The notes: generated from the sequence alone by a model not told the origin. 64,000 nucleotides of DNA from an uncultured Bacteroidota bacterium (GCA_946186925.1 CAMHPA010000011.1:5130-69129); one strand, 5' to 3'; positions 44,476-51,001 are shown, counted from the stretch's first letter. Numbers and translations: made by a program.

Positions 44476-44548
44476 CGGAGTTTAGCGCAGTTGGTAGCGC
44501 GCTACGTTCGGGACGTAGAGGTCGCTGGTTCGAATCCAGTAACTCCGA
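44476..44548 (+). tRNA. tRNA-Pro (anticodon CGG)
   Basis: Hand-folded cloverleaf. Acceptor CGGAGTT/AACTCCG, D-arm GCGC-AGTTGGTA-GCGC, anticodon arm CTACG-TTCGGGA-CGTAG (C34 G35 G36, G37), variable AGGTC, T-arm GCTGG-TTCGAAT-CCAGT, discriminator A. Length 73 nt, no encoded CCA. Confidence 0.95.
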
Positions 44549-44550
44549 CA

Positions 44551-44672: not shown

Positions 44673-45449
44673 TTAAATCAACCCGTGAATCAGCTTGTAA
44701 GCAATCGAGCCAGGCTGCGGGCTTGCGGGGCAGTTGTCGCGGCTGAACCAGTCGGCGTCGGCAATCTCGTCTTTCTGCAGGCGGATTTCGCCGCTCTCGT
44801 AATCGGCTGTGTATCCGAGCATTAGTTGGTCGGGGAAGGGCCAGCTCTGACTGCCGCGGTAGCGGATGTTCTTCACGCGGATGCCGATTTCTTCCTGCAG
44901 CTCGCGCTCAACGGCGTGCTCGGGCGTCTCACCGCCTTCAATGAATCCCGCAATGCAGGCGTAGATGTCCTGATTGCGCTGAACGTGGCGGGCAAGCAGA
45001 ATCTTGTCATCGCGGCTCACAAGCACAATCACGCACGGCTCGATGCGCGGAAAATGAATCTTGCCGCACTGCGGACACTCGCGCGCTGTAAACTGCTTGC
45101 TCTCAATGAGTTTTGCACCACACGTGCAGCAAAAATTCGTGCTCTGCCGCCAGTTGGCCACCGCCTTTGCCCGCGATGTGCGGAAAACAGTCGGTTCGTC
45201 GCTCTCGTTGAAGAACTGACGGATGGTTTTGGTGACGAAACGGTCGGGCAGTGGCTCGGCTGTTTCGAAGTTAAGAACGCAAATACCAAATTCTTGTTCT
45301 TCAAACAAATCGGCATTGCTATCTAAAGTTTTTATTTCAGTCAGGTCGGCCAGCGTAAGGGCGCTGCCGTCGGCTTTCAGCACAATGTTGCGCCCCGTTA
45401 GCGCAAAGCATTGGCAATTAGTTGTTTGCGGATTCGCTATTATTGGCAT
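44673..45449 (-). CDS. nudC: NAD+ diphosphatase / NADH pyrophosphatase NudC (zinc ribbon + Nudix)
   Basis: Zinc ribbon CCTCGAKLIESKQFTARECPQCG. Nudix box GFIEGGETPEHAVERELQEEIG. The downstream SQSWPFP motif is typical of NudC. ATG at 45449. Confidence 0.85.
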   Translation of the reverse strand: MPIIANPQTTNCQCFALTGRNIVLKADGSALTLADLTEIKTLDSNADLFEEQEFGICVLNFETAEPLPDRFVTKTIRQFFNESDEPTVFRTSRAKAVANWRQSTNFCCTCGAKLIESKQFTARECPQCGKIHFPRIEPCVIVLVSRDDKILLARHVQRNQDIYACIAGFIEGGETPEHAVERELQEEIGIRVKNIRYRGSQSWPFPDQLMLGYTADYESGEIRLQKDEIADADWFSRDNCPASPQPGSIAYKLIHGLI

Positions 45450-45583
45450 AGTCTGATTGTTTTCGCTTTTAAATGATATGGCAAAGTTGGGGAAAATTCG
45501 GCTCAAAACATAGGCAAGTAGGTTGTAAATTTAACAGAGAAACTATATTTCAACGCATAATTGTATTTTGTATGAGAAGAATA

Positions 45584-45784
45584 ATTGTCTGAAAGACAAT
45601 ATTTTCATAACCGCGGGTAAGCGAAGCGTAACCCGTGGTATCGTACACTCAAGTTCTGCAGACTGAAAGACTGAACCTTTGTATTGTTCACTCTTTCAGA
45701 GTGTTTCTTTTTTTTGCTTTGGCAACCGGCGGCTGCGCTACGCTTGCGGCCGGTTATGCAAATTCAGTCCTTCGGACTGTTTTG
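45584..45784 (+). ncRNA. hairpin-dense intergenic module; candidate small structured RNA or repeat element (function unknown)
   Basis: Five hairpins lie within 200 nt. H1 attgtct-gaa-agacaat (45584-45600). H2 accgcgggt-12 nt-acccgtggt (45610-45639). H3 cactct-ttc-agagtg followed by tttcttttttttg (45689-45716). H4 aaccggc-18 nt-gccggtt (45724-45755). H5 cagtcc-TTCG-ggactg followed by tttt (45765-45784). H3 and H5 look like + strand intrinsic terminators, yet they sit inside a divergent promoter region. Confidence 0.3.
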
Positions 45785-45914
45785 TGTAAAAACGTATTCT
45801 TGCGAAAAATCTTCACTTTTTTCAAAAATTTTTCAAACCTCTGCTTCAATCTCGCATAGGTTGCGGTTTCATTTGCGACAAATTTTATTGTTTAACTTTT
45901 AAAAAGCATTGATT

Positions 45915-46268
45915 ATGAAAGCAAGAAAGATGTTTTTTATGGATTGCCACTTGGCAGGACGTATGTATCACGATGCCGACGAGGTTTGGGACGAACTGAA
46001 GGTTGGCACGCAGTTGCAACTAGTGCTTGACACCGAAAACCGCTACGACCCCAAAGCCGTGGCCGTTTTGTACAACAAACAAGGCGAAGAAGAACCGTAT
46101 TTACTCGGCTACATTCCGCGTGGGCGGAACTCAGAAATCGCTTGTTTCTTAGAGTCTGGCTGGACAAATGTTTTCAGTTGCCGTATTCGCCGCATTACAC
46201 CCGATGCACACCCTGAAAATCAAGTGCAGCTCACAATCAGTGTCAACCGCAACCCCGAAGCCCAATAA
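45915..46268 (+). CDS. stand-alone HIRAN-domain protein
   Basis: KMFFMDCHLAGRMYHDADEVWDELKVGTQLQLVLDTENRYDPKAVAVLYN...LLGYIPRGRNSEIACFLESGW...SCRIRRI follows the HIRAN pattern (aromatic pair, G-x-L-x-L-x-x-E-x-x-N-x-Y-D-x-x-A-V, then GY(I/L)PR). ATG at 45915. Confidence 0.75.
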   Translation: MKARKMFFMDCHLAGRMYHDADEVWDELKVGTQLQLVLDTENRYDPKAVAVLYNKQGEEEPYLLGYIPRGRNSEIACFLESGWTNVFSCRIRRITPDAHPENQVQLTISVNRNPEAQ

Positions 46269-46295
46269 GGGCTGAAAGGTTTGAGTGCCGAACTT

Positions 46296-46326
46296 GCAGA
46301 CGGGCGTTGAGCCCGTTTGCTTTTTT
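46296..46326 (+). terminator. strong rho-independent terminator between the HIRAN gene and the mcrB-like gene
   Basis: 10-bp stem gcagacgggc / gcccgtttgc (includes a G-U pair) with loop gttga, followed by TTTTTT (46321-46326). Confidence 0.7.
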
Positions 46327-46335
46327 GGGGGTGAG

Positions 46336-46367
46336 TTTGAAAGGGATAGATATTATTGTTAGATTTG
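46336..46367 (+). promoter_or_regulatory. candidate Bacteroidota promoter for the mcrB-like operon
   Basis: TTTG at 46336-46339, a 20-nt spacer, then TAGATTTG (TAnnTTTG) at 46360-46367, 30 nt before the ATG at 46397. Confidence 0.5.
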
Positions 46368-46396
46368 GAAATGAAAAATGATAAAAACGATTTAAT

Positions 46397-47998
46397 ATGC
46401 AATTTAACAAGCAGAAATCACAAACCGATAGGCTTTGGATGTGGAATAAAAATGATATATGGAACGACGGCGTAACCATTTTTTCAACCAGTATTTTAAA
46501 AATGGGGGACTCCGCCCAAGGAAAGTTGGATTTTAAGTCATTTGAAACCAAAGCAGATTTAAGGACAGAATATCAAAGAATTGTTGGAAATACAGACCCA
46601 GTGATTCCCAATATGTATTGGCAATTTATGCACGAAGTCCAACCTAACGATATTGTTGTTGTGTTTGAAACCATTAAGGAAAATGGTACATTAAATCATT
46701 TGTTATATGGTTGGGGACGATTTACGTCAGAATGTAAAATTGTGGAAACAGATAATTACCCATTACAACGCGATGTGGTTTGGCATTTGCCAGCATTGTT
46801 AGAACCTGTAAAAGACATAAATACAAGTAATGCTATATATTTCCATTTAGTTGAAGGTGAGGGAGCAATAACAATTAAAAAACTATTAGGAATTGATATC
46901 AATAACATACAAGACTCTATGATACAGAAATATATCAACGTATTAAAATCCAACCACAACCTAATCCTAACAGGCGCCCCAGGCACAGGCAAAACCTATT
47001 TGGCAAAGCAGATAGCCCAGGCAATGGGTTGCACAGACAATGAAATCGGCTTTGTCCAATTCCACCCGTCGTACGACTACACCGACTTTGTTGAAGGTTT
47101 GCGGCCACTGAACGATGATGGCGGAAATGTCGGATTCGAACGCAAAGACGGGGTTTTCAAAGCCTTTTGTGCAAAGGCACTATCATTTAATACGAAATAC
47201 GAATGGTTGATTAATCATTTACAAACTAGACAAGCACCTATTGTTTTGGAAAGACCACGAAGCGAATCTTTTGAAGTGACTGTCGATAATTCTACTTTAA
47301 GGATTAATGGAGAATCAGTAACGAAAGAATTATTTAAGAGTTATTATGATGGAACTAAAACAGACAGGTGGTTTAATACACATTTTAAAAAGATACTTGA
47401 TTACATTGACAAGAATTATTTTGTAGTCTTCATTATCGACGAAATCAACCGCGGTGAAATCAACAAAATCTTCGGCGAGTTGTTCTTCTCAATCGACCCA
47501 GGCTATCGCGGCGAGAAGGGCCGAGTGCAGACGCAGTACCAGAATATGGTTGAAGATGGCGATGCTTTCAAAAAAGGCTTCTTCGTTCCCGAAAACGTCT
47601 ATATCATTGGTACAATGAACGATATCGACCGAAGCGTTGAGAGTATGGATTTCGCCTTCCGCCGCAGGTTCGCGTTTGTCGAGGTTAAGGCGGATGAAAA
47701 CACAGGAATGCTCAATGGAAAGGTGTGGAAAGACGACGCAATCAAACGAATGAATAGTCTGAACGCCACAATCGAGAAAATCGAGGGACTTTCGTCGGCT
47801 TACCACATAGGTGCAAGTTATTTCTTGAAACTTGATAATTATAATGGTGATTTCAAACAGTTATGGAAATATCACTTGGAAGGTCTTTTGTTCGAGTATC
47901 TACGTGGTACACAAAGTGTTGGCGAGAATATGCGGAAACTTGAGAAAGCCTACAATTTAAACAACACCGCAGCCGATGATTCGGATACCGACAACTGA
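46397..47998 (+). CDS. mcrB: McrB-like AAA+ (GTPase-type) restriction motor with an unassigned ~185-aa N-terminal domain and an ~80-aa insertion between Walker A and B
   Basis: Walker A NLILTGAPGTGKTY (aa ~189), FHPSYDYTDFVEG, Walker B FVVFIIDEINRGEINKIFGELF (aa ~344), IIGTMNDIDRSVESMDFAFRRRF. All are hallmark McrB/AAA_5 motifs. The N-terminal region (YWQFMHEVQPNDIVVVFE...LLYGWGRFTSE) might be a PUA/EVE-like reader, but this is unproven. Confidence 0.85.
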   Translation: MQFNKQKSQTDRLWMWNKNDIWNDGVTIFSTSILKMGDSAQGKLDFKSFETKADLRTEYQRIVGNTDPVIPNMYWQFMHEVQPNDIVVVFETIKENGTLNHLLYGWGRFTSECKIVETDNYPLQRDVVWHLPALLEPVKDINTSNAIYFHLVEGEGAITIKKLLGIDINNIQDSMIQKYINVLKSNHNLILTGAPGTGKTYLAKQIAQAMGCTDNEIGFVQFHPSYDYTDFVEGLRPLNDDGGNVGFERKDGVFKAFCAKALSFNTKYEWLINHLQTRQAPIVLERPRSESFEVTVDNSTLRINGESVTKELFKSYYDGTKTDRWFNTHFKKILDYIDKNYFVVFIIDEINRGEINKIFGELFFSIDPGYRGEKGRVQTQYQNMVEDGDAFKKGFFVPENVYIIGTMNDIDRSVESMDFAFRRRFAFVEVKADENTGMLNGKVWKDDAIKRMNSLNATIEKIEGLSSAYHIGASYFLKLDNYNGDFKQLWKYHLEGLLFEYLRGTQSVGENMRKLEKAYNLNNTAADDSDTDN

Positions 47999-49295
47999 TA
48001 ACTCAACTCGCACGCTGACAGACAGTGAGTTAGCCGCCAAATCCGACATTGAACTGATTTCTGACAAGAAAATCAGCGATTTGCTGTCGGGGCAGAAGAA
48101 CCTGCTTGTCTTTCCGCTCGATTTGAAACAGCACGGCGACGAAATCGGCGATGACCAGATTCTGTCGTTTCCCGACGGCAAAATCAGCACAGGCAACATA
48201 ATGGGCTTTGTGGGCGTGAACCAGACGCAAATCGACATTCGCTCGCGTTTCGCCCAAACCGACGGCAACGACTATTTCCTGCACTATATGTTGCAGAAAG
48301 TGTTTGCAATCAATCTGTTCGATTTGAAGCACGACACAAGCGCCGAGCGGATTTTCGATTTCCTGTTCTATCTGTTTCCCCATTTTCTGCGGAAGGCGGT
48401 GGCGCAGGGCGTTTTCAAGAAGTACCGCCACTTTGAGCACAACGACGCCAACATTCGCGGCCTCATTGATGTGAGCCGCCATATCCGCCAGAACATTCCG
48501 TTCCGCGGTACGGTGGCCTACACCACGCGCGAGCACACCTACGACAACGAACTCACGCAACTTGTTCGCCACACCATTGAGTTCATTCGCGGCAAGGAGC
48601 AGGGGCAGGCAATTCTGAACAACGATGCCGACACCAAAACGGCTGTCAGCCAGATTGTTATGGCCACGCCAACCTACAACGCCCGCGAGCGCGCCAAAAT
48701 CGTCAGCCAGAACCTTCGGCCCGTGCGGCACCCGTACTTTTCGGCCTACACCGACTTGCAGCGGCTCTGCCTGCAAATCCTTCGCCACGAGGAACTCAAA
48801 TACGGCCGCCAGAAAGACCAAATCTACGGCATTCTGTTCGACGGTGCTTGGCTTTGGGAGGAGTATTTGAATACGATTCTGAAGGATTTGGATTTCAAGC
48901 ACCCGAAGAACAAGGAAAGCCGTGGCGGTATCAGAATGTTTGAAAAGCCTGATGATGAAAACTTTTTCGACAAAAACAGCCGTCGTCTATATCCCGATTT
49001 TTGGAAAGAAAACTTCATTCTCGATGCCAAATATAAGCGTTTAGACAATGGAGTTGGCCGCGAGGATTTGTACCAGGTTGTTACTTATATGCATTGTATG
49101 AGGGCTGATAACGGCGGTTTTGTGTATCCTGTTGAAACAGAATCTAAAACAGAGAAATATGGACTTGCAGGCTACGGCGGTACAATGAGGTTGATTGGCT
49201 TGCAAGTACAGCACCAGTGCGGTTCGTATACTGATTATGTTGCTGCAATGAAAGGTGCGGAGAGCAATTTGTTGGAGTATTTGAAGCAAACCTGA
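47976..49295 (+). CDS. mcrC: McrC-like PD-(D/E)xK nuclease subunit
   Basis: The start overlaps mcrB by 23 nt. Its length and position are right for McrC. The C-terminal motif RRLYPDFWKENFILDAKYKRL has the D...(D/E)xK pattern, followed by DLYQVVTYM. Confidence 0.8.
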   Translation: MIRIPTTDNSTRTLTDSELAAKSDIELISDKKISDLLSGQKNLLVFPLDLKQHGDEIGDDQILSFPDGKISTGNIMGFVGVNQTQIDIRSRFAQTDGNDYFLHYMLQKVFAINLFDLKHDTSAERIFDFLFYLFPHFLRKAVAQGVFKKYRHFEHNDANIRGLIDVSRHIRQNIPFRGTVAYTTREHTYDNELTQLVRHTIEFIRGKEQGQAILNNDADTKTAVSQIVMATPTYNARERAKIVSQNLRPVRHPYFSAYTDLQRLCLQILRHEELKYGRQKDQIYGILFDGAWLWEEYLNTILKDLDFKHPKNKESRGGIRMFEKPDDENFFDKNSRRLYPDFWKENFILDAKYKRLDNGVGREDLYQVVTYMHCMRADNGGFVYPVETESKTEKYGLAGYGGTMRLIGLQVQHQCGSYTDYVAAMKGAESNLLEYLKQT

Positions 49296-49320
49296 AAACC
49301 AATGTGTATATTTGGCCATA

Positions 49321-50478
49321 ATGAAGACCGATTGGAAAGCATATTGGGAGAGAAAGCGAAAAGCGGAAGGTTCGGAAAAGCCAAACAGCGTATATCGTCC
49401 GCACACCAAGTGGTACAATTACAAAGGTGCAGGTGTGTATATGATAACCATTGTCACCTACAATCGAAAGCCGATACTTGGTGAATTGAATAACGACACC
49501 AGCAATCCGCGAGTCGAACTGTCAGCACTCGGAAAATATGTTGAGCAGCAATGGTTGCAGATACCAGCCGTTCAAGCCTTGCACAAACGCCGCGTCAGTC
49601 TGCTTGGTCACCAGGTTATGCCCGACCATTTTCACGGTATACTGCGTGTGGATGCGGATTTGGATGTGTCAATGGGAGAAATAATCCGTGGATTCAAGAT
49701 AAGTTGCACAAAAGAGTGGCGTCAAAAATATCAGACATATATGTCTGATATAGAATTGGAAAAGAAGAAGAGCCACCTTTCACACATATCACAAAAGAAA
49801 CGCCAGGCGTATTATGTAACCCACCCCGAAATGGCGCCGCTTTTTACCGATGGCTATGACGACACCATTTGCTTTCACGATGGCCAACTCAACAATGTAA
49901 TCAACTACGTTCGCGATAATCCGCGTCGCGCCATACTCAAACGAGCGAACCCGCAGTTGTTTGTGCTGAATCAAAACATTGAGGTTGCAGGCTTTCGATG
50001 CACAACACTCGGCAAGCAGTTTTTGCTCGATTATCCGCAAAAGGCCGCATTGCAATGCTCTCGCTCGCTGACGCAAGAACAGATTGATAAGCAGAAAGAG
50101 CAATGTTTGGCCGATGCCGAGCGAGGAACAGTTTGGGTTAGCGCTTGTATTTCAGAAGGTGAGAAGCAAATTAGCAAAGCCTTGCGCGAGGCAGGTTTCC
50201 CGATTATCATTCTGCTCAAAGATGGCTTTCCAAAACCCGATAGTCCGCACTGTAAGTATTTCAAGCCGCAAGGGGCATATTTTGAGGCTTGCGCCGATGG
50301 TCGGCTATTGCTTGTCGAACCAACCCTGCAATTATTCGATGACCGAACAATCGAAGCCCGTGTATCTCAAAAAGCAGGAATGCTACCGCACGACACGTTG
50401 CGGTATAAATTTTTGGCACTCAATGCCTTCGCTCAACTAATAAGCAACCAAACGCTTTGTGTTAGCAACCGTTCTTGA
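49321..50478 (+). CDS. Y1 HUH (IS200/IS605 TnpA / RayT-like) domain protein with ~190-aa C-terminal extension
   Basis: VYMITIVTYNRKPILGEL (beta 1), HQVMPDHFHGILRV (HUH = H-F-H), SMGEIIRGFKISCTKEW, and LFTDGYDDTICFHDGQLNNVINYVRDNPRRA (catalytic-Tyr helix, Y-x-x-x-N-P). The C-terminal region GTVWVSACISEGEKQISKALREAGFPIIILLKDGFP...GRLLLVEP loosely resembles a DprA/SLOG-type Rossmann motif. The ATG at 49321 is 25 nt after the mcrC stop. I could find no flanking IS-end hairpins. Confidence 0.7.
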   Translation: MKTDWKAYWERKRKAEGSEKPNSVYRPHTKWYNYKGAGVYMITIVTYNRKPILGELNNDTSNPRVELSALGKYVEQQWLQIPAVQALHKRRVSLLGHQVMPDHFHGILRVDADLDVSMGEIIRGFKISCTKEWRQKYQTYMSDIELEKKKSHLSHISQKKRQAYYVTHPEMAPLFTDGYDDTICFHDGQLNNVINYVRDNPRRAILKRANPQLFVLNQNIEVAGFRCTTLGKQFLLDYPQKAALQCSRSLTQEQIDKQKEQCLADAERGTVWVSACISEGEKQISKALREAGFPIIILLKDGFPKPDSPHCKYFKPQGAYFEACADGRLLLVEPTLQLFDDRTIEARVSQKAGMLPHDTLRYKFLALNAFAQLISNQTLCVSNRS

Positions 50479-51001
50479 ATGACCGATTTTTCCCTTCCAC
50501 CCATTCCCCAAACTTCCGTGCCAGCCAATGCGCCAGTAGCAGATTGGCGCCCACGGCCACCACAGCGGCAAGGCTGTAGATGGTGATTTCGATGGGTGAG
50601 AAGTCGGAAGTTTTGATGCAATCGGCTATCAGCCAAAGGCTTACGGGCAGAACAAAAATGCTTGTAGCAAGCGCGGGAATGTATTTGCGGATGACAACCG
50701 CCTGCCCAATGTGAACCACCAGATGCAGCGCGAAGGCGATGAACGTGCCCAGCCAGAGCAGGTTGAACGCGCGGATGCCTGTGAATGTCAATCCGCAGAT
50801 TATCAGCAGCAAAACAAACTCTTCGGCAACGGCAAGCGCGAAGCCTTCGGTGGCGGTTGTGCTCTTGAAAATGAAAGCGAATCGCGGAAAGCGTTGGCAA
50901 ATGGCGGCGGCGTTTCGGGCAGTCCACGCGCGCATTCCGATAATCTCTTCGAAATCGTGAAAAACAAACAGCAGCGGCAAAAGCCAGATGTATTGGTCCA
51001 T
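50462..51001 (-). CDS. HXXEE-domain membrane protein
   Basis: N-terminal MDQYIWLLPLLFVFHDFEEIIGM carries the H-x-x-E-E motif. There are five or six TM helices. The 3' end overlaps the convergent Y1 gene by 17 nt. Confidence 0.65.
   Translation of the reverse strand: MDQYIWLLPLLFVFHDFEEIIGMRAWTARNAAAICQRFPRFAFIFKSTTATEGFALAVAEEFVLLLIICGLTFTGIRAFNLLWLGTFIAFALHLVVHIGQAVVIRKYIPALATSIFVLPVSLWLIADCIKTSDFSPIEITIYSLAAVVAVGANLLLAHWLARKFGEWVEGKNRSFKNGC

Follow-up and report, generated by a model that had tools for sequence, protein, structure and literature searches.

A mosaic defence islet in an uncultured Bacteroidota bacterium: a McrBC pair beside a HIRAN protein and a HUH-Y1 nuclease with a predicted DprA-like domain

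The McrBC systems of Escherichia coli and Thermococcus gammatolerans are the closest described relatives of a four-gene islet that lies in a stretch of 64,000 nucleotides from an uncultured Bacteroidota bacterium (GCA_946186925.1, CAMHPA010000011.1:5130-69129; the whole stretch is called the window here) and that encodes, in this order, a stand-alone HIRAN protein, McrB, McrC and a HUH-Y1 nuclease with a predicted DprA-like domain (Y1-DprA). The census of McrBC systems (Bell et al. 2024, PMC11090510) records no HIRAN or Y1-DprA companions, names HIRAN only as a look-alike of the CoCoNuT OB-fold and describes prokaryotic HIRAN domains as uncharacterised. HIRAN does figure in the work on WYL-regulated, ARG-centric systems (Iyer et al. 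2022, PMC9503650, section 3.8), which notes that ARPP forms two-gene pairs with HIRAN and with a WYL factor. Relatives of the islet resemble these systems in that their HIRAN gene stands behind a WYL gene and in the company of ADP-ribosylglycohydrolase or PARG genes and restriction-fold nucleases; the window islet differs from them in having no WYL, ARG, PARG or phosphatase gene, and that work does not describe McrBC or GmrSD cassettes with HIRAN directly at their head.

The fourth protein shares with RAYT and with the TnpA of IS200-IS605 a HUH-Y1 core, a Y..NP tyrosine motif and the fold of IS608, ISDra2 and RAYT, and many of its relatives have hairpins flanking and inside the gene, as in subclass 2.4 of Quentin et al. 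2018 (PMC6006769). With its DH[FL]H and YVxDNPRR motifs, a length of ~380 aa and the DprA-like C-terminal domain it nonetheless falls outside all 12 TnpA_Y1 subclasses of that study, and, unlike RAYT, the window gene has no flanking repeats and sits beside restriction genes, a position not described for RAYT. The predicted C-domain fold resembles that of DprA and ShosA, from which the protein differs in being fused to a HUH nuclease and in having no ShosT-like partner gene. Nowhere in the literature searched did we find a description of HIRAN heading McrBC or GmrSD cassettes or of Y1-DprA genes closing HIRAN contexts; an earlier note on this DNA knew of no McrBC variant with a HIRAN or HUH partner. 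The association of HIRAN (often with WYL) with type IV nucleases, and a Y1-DprA family with repetitive extragenic palindromic (REP)-like repeats and an affinity for restriction genes, thus appear to be undescribed; nothing categorically new was found, and the McrBC pair itself is textbook.

On balance, we think it probable that the islet is a conventional McrBC system accompanied by a shared HIRAN accessory and by an immobilised Y1-DprA gene that HIRAN-McrBC persists without. What the core has in common with the E. coli and T. gammatolerans systems is the AAA+ motor, the MNxxDRS signature, the fold, the PF10117 nuclease with its PD...DxK site, the gene overlap and a variable N-terminal domain, here a putative reader. 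McrB falls into AAA_5 in Pfam and scores 6e-40 against the NCBIfam McrB model, under its equivalog cutoff because the N-terminus differs; Walker A occupies residues 193-200, Walker B (IIDEINR) 346-352 and the signature (MNDIDRS) 407-413. Its AlphaFold2 (AF2) model (pLDDT 83) was matched by Foldseek to 6ut5 and 6hz4, the Thermococcus and E. coli McrB motors, with E-values of 6e-20 to 2e-17. McrC covers the full PF10117 profile (3.9e-54), with its nuclease site at PD 340-341 and DAK 350-352. Judged by these motifs and the predicted fold, the core reads as a McrB/McrC type IV restriction pair of an already known, conventional kind. The domain calls of the earlier note for all four proteins (HIRAN, McrB, McrC, Y1-HUH) were correct, every motif it quoted being intact; the open reading frame (ORF) coordinates bear out four co-oriented plus-strand genes between nudC and the HXXEE gene, near a tRNA-Pro, and its spacing, a 23-nt overlap of mcrB and mcrC and a 25-nt gap from mcrC to the Y1 ATG, was reproduced exactly.

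The McrB motor spans residues ~175-533 and is preceded by an N-terminal domain of ~155 aa (residues ~10-165) that is confidently folded and beta-rich in the AF2 model. By sequence this domain matches no described reader family; neither phmmer nor profile searches matched it to a PDB sequence, and Pfam found no family in 14 homologous domains. Foldseek was run on the full-length model, so that its matches are dominated by the motor. Relatives of 650-980 aa carry this domain together with one or two extra N-terminal domains, and one homologue gives a faint EVE match (E 0.069). In some relatives the domain is swapped. The arrangement looks, from the sequences, like the usual modular reader architecture of McrB. 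By analogy with the family, the N-terminal reader would find target, presumably modified, DNA, the GTP-driven McrB AAA+ ring would translocate, and McrC would cut through its PD-DxK site.

The HIRAN protein matches PF08797 at 2.5e-11 and 43.7 bits, against a curated cutoff of 24.7, and among solved structures the bacterial HIRAN protein 3k2y is closest to it in sequence (profile match 7.6e-6). It belongs to a stand-alone family of ~400 clusters from Prevotella-like, Muribaculaceae and Bacteroidaceae assemblies, 110-146 aa long (mostly 113-125) and 56-80% identical to the window protein, in which the motifs GR.Y, N..D..A, GY.PR and HPE.Q are invariant, including N44, D47, A50 and G67-Y68-P70-R71. 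The HIRAN domain of eukaryotic HLTF binds the free 3'-OH end of single-stranded DNA (ssDNA). On context and fold, we suggest that the bacterial protein acts as a shared DNA 3'-end sensor or adaptor of variable cassettes, and not as a dedicated McrBC subunit.

Its gene is most likely a transcription unit of its own, because a terminator-like hairpin and a match to the -7 promoter box separate it from mcrB. The hairpin (46296-46320) has a 10-bp stem with 7 GC pairs and is followed by TTTTTT, and region 46270-46340 folds at -27 kcal/mol (z -2.9). Over the 100-nt bin 46286-46385, four related loci show 90-98% identity, although the HIRAN and mcrB sequences that flank this bin are divergent. The Bacteroidetes -7 box has the consensus TAnnTTTG, and TAGATTTG is a putative mcrB box of this type.

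Eleven distinct genomic contexts of the HIRAN family were obtained (loci carry L numbers): (i) HIRAN-McrBC at this nudC locus; (ii) WYL-HIRAN-PARG-McrB-McrC-Y1 (L051); (iii) McrB-McrC-WYL-HIRAN-ADP-ribosylglycohydrolase-Y1 paralogue (L095-98); (iv) HicB-HIRAN-four small genes-GmrSD...WYL (L100/101); (v) WYL-HIRAN-66 aa-GmrSD (L102-104); (vi) HIRAN-411-229-GmrSD-171-ADP-ribosylglycohydrolase (L114-117); (vii) WYL-HIRAN-221-275-PDDEXK_4-DUF6994-Y1 paralogue (L099); (viii) WYL-HIRAN-three unknown genes (L092-94); (ix) type I restriction-modification (RM)-HIRAN (L091); (x) WYL-HIRAN-159 aa, where the contig ends (L111-113); and (xi) HIRAN-DUF4419 (L118). A WYL regulator lies directly 5' of HIRAN in six of the eleven, six have a type IV nuclease no more than a few genes away from it (McrBC in three, GmrSD in three), and PARG or ADP-ribosylglycohydrolase genes follow it in three (L051, L095-98 and L114-117). 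HIRAN is thus a genuine defence-cassette companion, especially of type IV nucleases, but it is not McrBC-specific, since it also occurs with GmrSD, PD-(D/E)xK, type I RM or unknown genes. The link between HIRAN and McrBC does extend beyond one locus: it is present at all six nudC loci and at the non-syntenic L051 and L095-98. We would place HIRAN, usually with a WYL regulator, at the head of cassettes rich in type IV nucleases and ADP-ribose hydrolases, and a conserved stand-alone HIRAN in that position gives prokaryotic HIRAN a concrete setting in gut and rumen Bacteroidales. A scan of viral contigs with the HIRAN profile returned distant phage HIRANs only, with no useful context.

Proteins of one cluster, h10, recur in the HIRAN islands (L095 785-2083, L092 8973-10364 and L114 7173-7688). 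Their C-terminal LRWNP...W segment resembles EVE/ASCH-type reader domains, and the family may be another modified-base reader of HIRAN cassettes.

How the islet itself is inherited can be read from five further loci that share nudC at 90-97% protein identity (L001, L003, L007, L008 and L011/L012), in all of which HIRAN-McrB-McrC is present. The nudC gene and the intergenic region are 84-100% identical in DNA in L003, L008 and L011, with L007 similar except for a 65-nt deletion; identity then drops to 66-87% in the HIRAN ORF of L003, L008 and L011, and homology is lost in the N-terminal region of mcrB, where a short patch around Walker A (~46946-47181) is conserved. From 47426 to 50530, which takes in the McrB C-terminus, McrC and Y1, L003 is again ~94% identical, L007 reaches ~95% from 47426 onward, and in L011 high identity resumes only from ~48100. 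Two HIRAN allele classes exist at the locus, and the synonymous divergence (dS) of ~0.7 between them, against 0.1-0.2 for nudC and the flanks, points to allelic replacement. Two of the six related loci (L001 and L008) have no Y1 and show no homology to the window between ~48870 and ~50500. We therefore read the locus as a small defence islet, made mosaic by recombination, at a conserved chromosomal site between nudC and HXXEE.

Within L007 (8787-9185), the HIRAN gene appears to be frameshifted near its C-terminus, with loss of the conserved CRI...HPExQ strands, and mcrBC and Y1 are intact; the frameshift may be a true pseudogene or an error in the metagenome-assembled genome.

The fourth gene deserves separate treatment. 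Its product is composed of a HUH-Y1 nuclease domain (residues ~35-215) and a predicted DprA-like Rossmann domain (residues ~220-380), and in the 385-aa numbering the HUH motif MPDHFH lies at 100-105 and the tyrosine motif NYVRDNPRR at 195-203. All 29 homologues in an alignment keep the histidines of the HUH motif (MPDHxH) and the tyrosine of Y(V/I)xDNPRR without exception, and conservation is higher still in the C-terminal half. Sequence scores lie under the cutoffs, both for Y1_Tnp (PF01797; 20.6 bits against 23, over residues 88-144 only) and for REP_Tyr_transpos (NCBIfam NF047646; 40.1 bits against 80), so that the assignment rests on motifs and predicted fold. The N-domain of the AF2 model (pLDDT 79) matches the TnpA of ISDra2, IS608 and IS200 (2xma, 2vju, 2ec2) at a target-normalised template-modelling (TM) score of 0.6-0.7 and probability 1.0, as well as the E. 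coli RAYT 4er8. The motifs and the HUH assignment made in the earlier note therefore stand, while the second, more conserved DprA-like domain had escaped it. The family comprises ~640 clusters of 263-465 aa (mostly 310-440) from rumen and gut Bacteroidales; a search with the C-domain sequence gave 588 representative clusters. Among the 150 listed, the domain is C-terminal in almost every case, and none of those 150 is a canonical DprA. A 1082-aa protein (P0372) considered as a Rosetta-stone fusion carries phosphatidylserine decarboxylase and condensation domains and was set aside as uninformative here. We would describe Y1-DprA as a HUH-Y1 nuclease fused to a putative DprA-like ssDNA-binding domain, in a RAYT-like family of low-copy, hairpin-flanked elements.

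The neighbourhoods of this family were surveyed in 80 metagenomic loci fetched through Y1-DprA. McrBC is absent from 77 of them and present only in L011/L012, which is this same locus, and in L051. An MmeI-type IIL restriction-modification gene adjoins Y1 in 9 loci and recurs in several Y1 clades; otherwise the 150 de-duplicated genes within two positions of Y1 spread over 116 mostly unrelated Pfam families, with few matches of defence type (MmeI/type IIG 4, PDC-S01 3, McrBC 2, WYL 2). In ~25-30 of 82 loci, Y1 has short, same-orientation hairpin repeats on either side, often tandem and clade-specific, with the units TGCGCATCCATGCGCA in L021-L031, CTGCGGAATACCGCAG in L057, L072, L077 and L080, and CAGCCATnnATGGCTG in L016 and L020. 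Such units (period ~35 nt) also occur in frame inside the Y1 linker between the HUH and tyrosine motifs, and in loci of 12-21 kb the repeats are found only in and around the Y1 gene; the hairpins around Y1 genes are a REPtron-like arrangement of the kind seen with REP-associated transposases. The in-frame linker hairpins give these Y1 proteins low-complexity peptide repeats, for example in L077 (8775-10232).

Movement is also seen in the closest non-syntenic relatives of the window gene (58-62% identity). In L013 (303-1670), L014 (9780-11170) and L015 (1-1250), Y1 is flanked on both sides by remnants, 60-90 nt long, of MmeI C-terminal coding sequence (AAYGFSPKMTESECVAELF), the upstream one in L013 being in frame with Y1; the three loci are different housekeeping contexts with no MmeI gene present, and the recurrence of the remnants in all three implies a bounded unit that has moved. 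The window gene is of another sort. No flanking repeats, transposon-type ends or hairpins were found around it, its four closest relatives likewise have no flanking repeats, and the 64-kb window holds neither a related hairpin family elsewhere nor a second Y1 copy. The gene is intact in four related genomes, with a ratio of nonsynonymous to synonymous divergence (dN/dS) of 0.12-0.23 and a dS of 0.08-0.14, comparable to nudC. It is an old, immobilised resident that is stably inherited and under selection, rather than a recent insertion.

Beyond the window, Y1-DprA is present in three further HIRAN contexts (L051, L095-98 and L099), and it closes the row of co-oriented genes, next to core genes, in three of the four (the window, L095-98 and L099). 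The L095-98 and L099 loci, fetched through HIRAN only, carry a divergent paralogue, ~30% identical, in which the HUH, Tyr and ISxxEK motifs are retained. In L051, Y1 has REP-like hairpins of its own and is 42% identical to that of the window, and its nearest relatives (58-64% identity) are in loci without McrBC; with separate Y1 lineages 3' of mcrC in the window and in L051, the adjacency most likely arose at least twice. Y1-DprA thus recurs at the 3' edge of restriction cassettes in a loose, recurrent association, and by a rough estimate its presence in 4 of the 11 HIRAN contexts is far above chance even at ten copies per 3-Mb genome. From context and fold, we suggest that Y1-DprA may aid ssDNA-based rearrangement or mobility of the cassettes rather than restriction itself; if its association with restriction genes is functional, transposase-type chemistry on ssDNA would be linked to the turnover of defence islands. 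In L096 (8644-9652) the divergent (type-2) paralogue that ends the McrBC-WYL-HIRAN-ARH island is split into two ORFs in one metagenome and is intact in three others.

These results bear directly on the model of the earlier note, in which HIRAN, McrB, McrC and Y1-DprA form one system acting on ssDNA intermediates: Y1-DprA would nick ssDNA and leave a free 3'-OH, HIRAN would bind that end, and McrBC would be recruited or licensed to destroy the molecule. We regard this as unlikely, even though the order HIRAN-(PARG)-McrB-McrC-Y1 recurs in the non-syntenic L051 at only 41-48% identity, paralogues of Y1-DprA end the HIRAN islands L095-98 and L099, the window Y1 is under purifying selection and lacks transposon-like ends, and the biochemistry would be complementary, the product of a HUH enzyme being, from established knowledge, the ligand of HIRAN. 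Against it, L001 and L008 keep HIRAN-McrBC without Y1, and in six non-syntenic relatives of this McrBC tblastn found neither HIRAN nor Y1, with a short upstream flank in several (a genome scan with McrB returned 9 loci). The L051 adjacency most likely arose separately and was not inherited, as its own hairpins and its McrBC-less nearest relatives indicate; the great majority of Y1 loci have no McrBC; and HIRAN has its own terminator and an apparent frameshift in L007, where McrBC is intact. A compact, dedicated four-gene machine is thus not borne out, HIRAN being a separate unit with varied partners. For Y1, the grounds on which the earlier note would itself have given up the idea largely apply: the gene is missing at L001 and L008, few Y1 loci have McrBC, and relatives occur as bounded units with flanking repeats in unrelated housekeeping contexts. 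What finds support is a looser link between HIRAN, type IV nucleases and Y1-DprA; an obligate system is not supported.

Under a second explanation, a composite element mobilised as ssDNA would carry HIRAN-McrBC as cargo and Y1-DprA as its transposase, with HIRAN and Y1-DprA as the two conserved brackets. Four HIRAN islands contain Y1-DprA, and its terminal position next to core genes in three of them fits such an element, as does the movement of the L013-15 units with attached flanking DNA; when compared with L001 and L008, McrC and Y1 behave as a single inherited block, and the left edge holds a long, structured inverted repeat (45580-45785, z -5.3). We found, however, no shared end sequences around the islet, no second copy of it in another context and no empty site, for which no dedicated search was made. 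The left-edge repeat, which occurs once in the window, forms part of the nudC-conserved flank even in the Y1-less L008. The dS of Y1, equal to that of nudC, argues against recent movement, and the mosaic pattern already suggests piecemeal, not en-bloc, gain and loss. Piecemeal exchange and the two Y1-less loci together weigh against both the four-gene system and the composite cassette, and we consider the latter quite improbable.

At the other extreme, only McrBC would matter, HIRAN being a leftover of a WYL-HIRAN-ADP-ribose-hydrolase module or a recombination anchor and Y1 a hitchhiker. In its favour, the WYL and ARG/PARG genes found beside HIRAN in other loci are missing from the window, the HIRAN gene is followed by a terminator of its own and is frameshifted at its C-terminus in L007, and the neighbours of Y1 are mostly unrelated. 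This explanation is nevertheless distinctly unlikely in our view: HIRAN is kept in all six related loci with a dN/dS of ~0.3, even across the allele replacement, type IV nucleases lie near HIRAN in more than half of its contexts, and Y1 is under purifying selection; retention and selection of both genes weigh against irrelevant neighbours.

Our preferred reading, a conventional McrBC system with a shared HIRAN accessory and an immobilised Y1-DprA, has to be set against several observations that count against it. The eleven HIRAN contexts are a small sample, selected for long contigs and drawn from related gut and rumen Bacteroidales. For the C-domain of Y1-DprA, the Foldseek matches to ShosA (8zva) and DprA (3uqz, 4ljk) have a probability of 0.96-1.0 and weak E-values of 0.005-0.2, and no DprA similarity was found at sequence level in the Pfam, PDB or family searches. 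A window Y1 free of mobile-element hallmarks and as stable as nudC also fits a domesticated functional partner, and its presence in 4 of 11 HIRAN contexts exceeds the expectation for a pure bystander, unless both genes simply favour defence islands.

Taken further, the stand-alone HIRAN at the 5' end and Y1-DprA at the 3' end might be conserved brackets of an unrecognised class of Bacteroidales defence cassettes, a proposal that we rate as doubtful and for which two alternative mechanisms are possible. In one, a HUH/DprA ssDNA process would move or reshuffle the nuclease cargo (McrBC, GmrSD or PD-(D/E)xK); in the other, a HUH-made 3'-OH would be passed to HIRAN and would license the nuclease against invaders at an ssDNA stage, such as conjugative DNA or rolling-circle replicons.

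PADLOC reported no complete system in the window and no match for McrC or Y1, and it matched McrB to type II restriction-enzyme profiles. The window HIRAN matches only the HIRAN (C-terminal) half of PDC-M03B, at profile positions 125-229 of 250, and membership in PDC-M03 was rejected: the match is to the HIRAN domain only, no islet protein matches PDC-M03A, no kinase gene is nearby, and the window showed no partner protein of this candidate system. We take PDC-M03 to be a pair of a HipA-like kinase and HIRAN; pairs of HipA and HIRAN are described from Actinobacteria and other groups (PMC11706625), in a paper that does not name that candidate system.

Table 1. Genes and other features of the islet and its immediate surroundings, in window coordinates.
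Feature	Position	Strand	Remarks
HIRAN gene	45909/45915-46268	+	ATG 45915 gives 117 aa; ORF opens at TTG 45909; PF08797
Intrinsic-terminator-like hairpin with T-run	46296-46330	+	between HIRAN and mcrB
TAGATTTG, -7-box match (putative)	46361-46368	+	~30 nt 5' of mcrB ATG
mcrB	46397-47998	+	533 aa; McrB-type AAA+ GTPase motor
mcrC	47976-49295	+	439 aa; nuclease subunit, PF10117
Y1-DprA gene	49312/49321-50478	+	388/385 aa; HUH-Y1 and predicted DprA-like domains
nudC	44673-45506	-	NUDIX plus Zn-ribbon; left neighbour of islet
HXXEE gene	50462-51001	-	right neighbour of islet
tRNA-Pro	44476-44549		Rfam

At the right edge of the islet (Table 1), the Y1 and HXXEE genes converge and overlap by 17 nt. 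The last ~10 codons of the window HXXEE gene derive from the Y1-containing block, since the junction with L001 and L008 lies at ~50500. In L003 (~13765) and L011 (~11210) the rest of HXXEE and the MFS/LtaS block are replaced beyond 50530, beside a hairpin at 50531-50551; this breakpoint was considered as the end of a Y1 element and rejected, as the Y1 block ends ~30 nt earlier, at ~50500, against L001 and L008.

An Rfam scan of 43-53 kb found nothing besides the tRNA-Pro. The spacer between nudC and HIRAN, at the left edge, contains the extended imperfect palindrome of ~200 nt mentioned above (45580-45785), with arms at 45587-45633 and 45731-45777 and an inner hairpin at 45663-45699. Its folding energy is -72.5 kcal/mol, with the z-score already given; it occurs once in the window, has no Rfam match and is shorter in L007, where 65 nt of the left arm are missing. 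The palindrome could be a small RNA, a relic like a miniature inverted-repeat transposable element or a regulatory structure. Two short segments just 5' of HIRAN (45877-45903) and of mcrB (46345-46371) are 70% identical over 27 nt (ATTATTGTT) and could be duplicated promoter or operator elements.

Finally, a DUF3987 protein encoded in L016 (7086-8660) contains four tandem 20-aa repeats, EAEENKIDHxWSMRSxGAEL. Back-translation of DHVWSM suggests a near-palindromic DNA unit like the hairpins that flank the neighbouring Y1; in that case, repeats of this kind would enter other coding genes as well.

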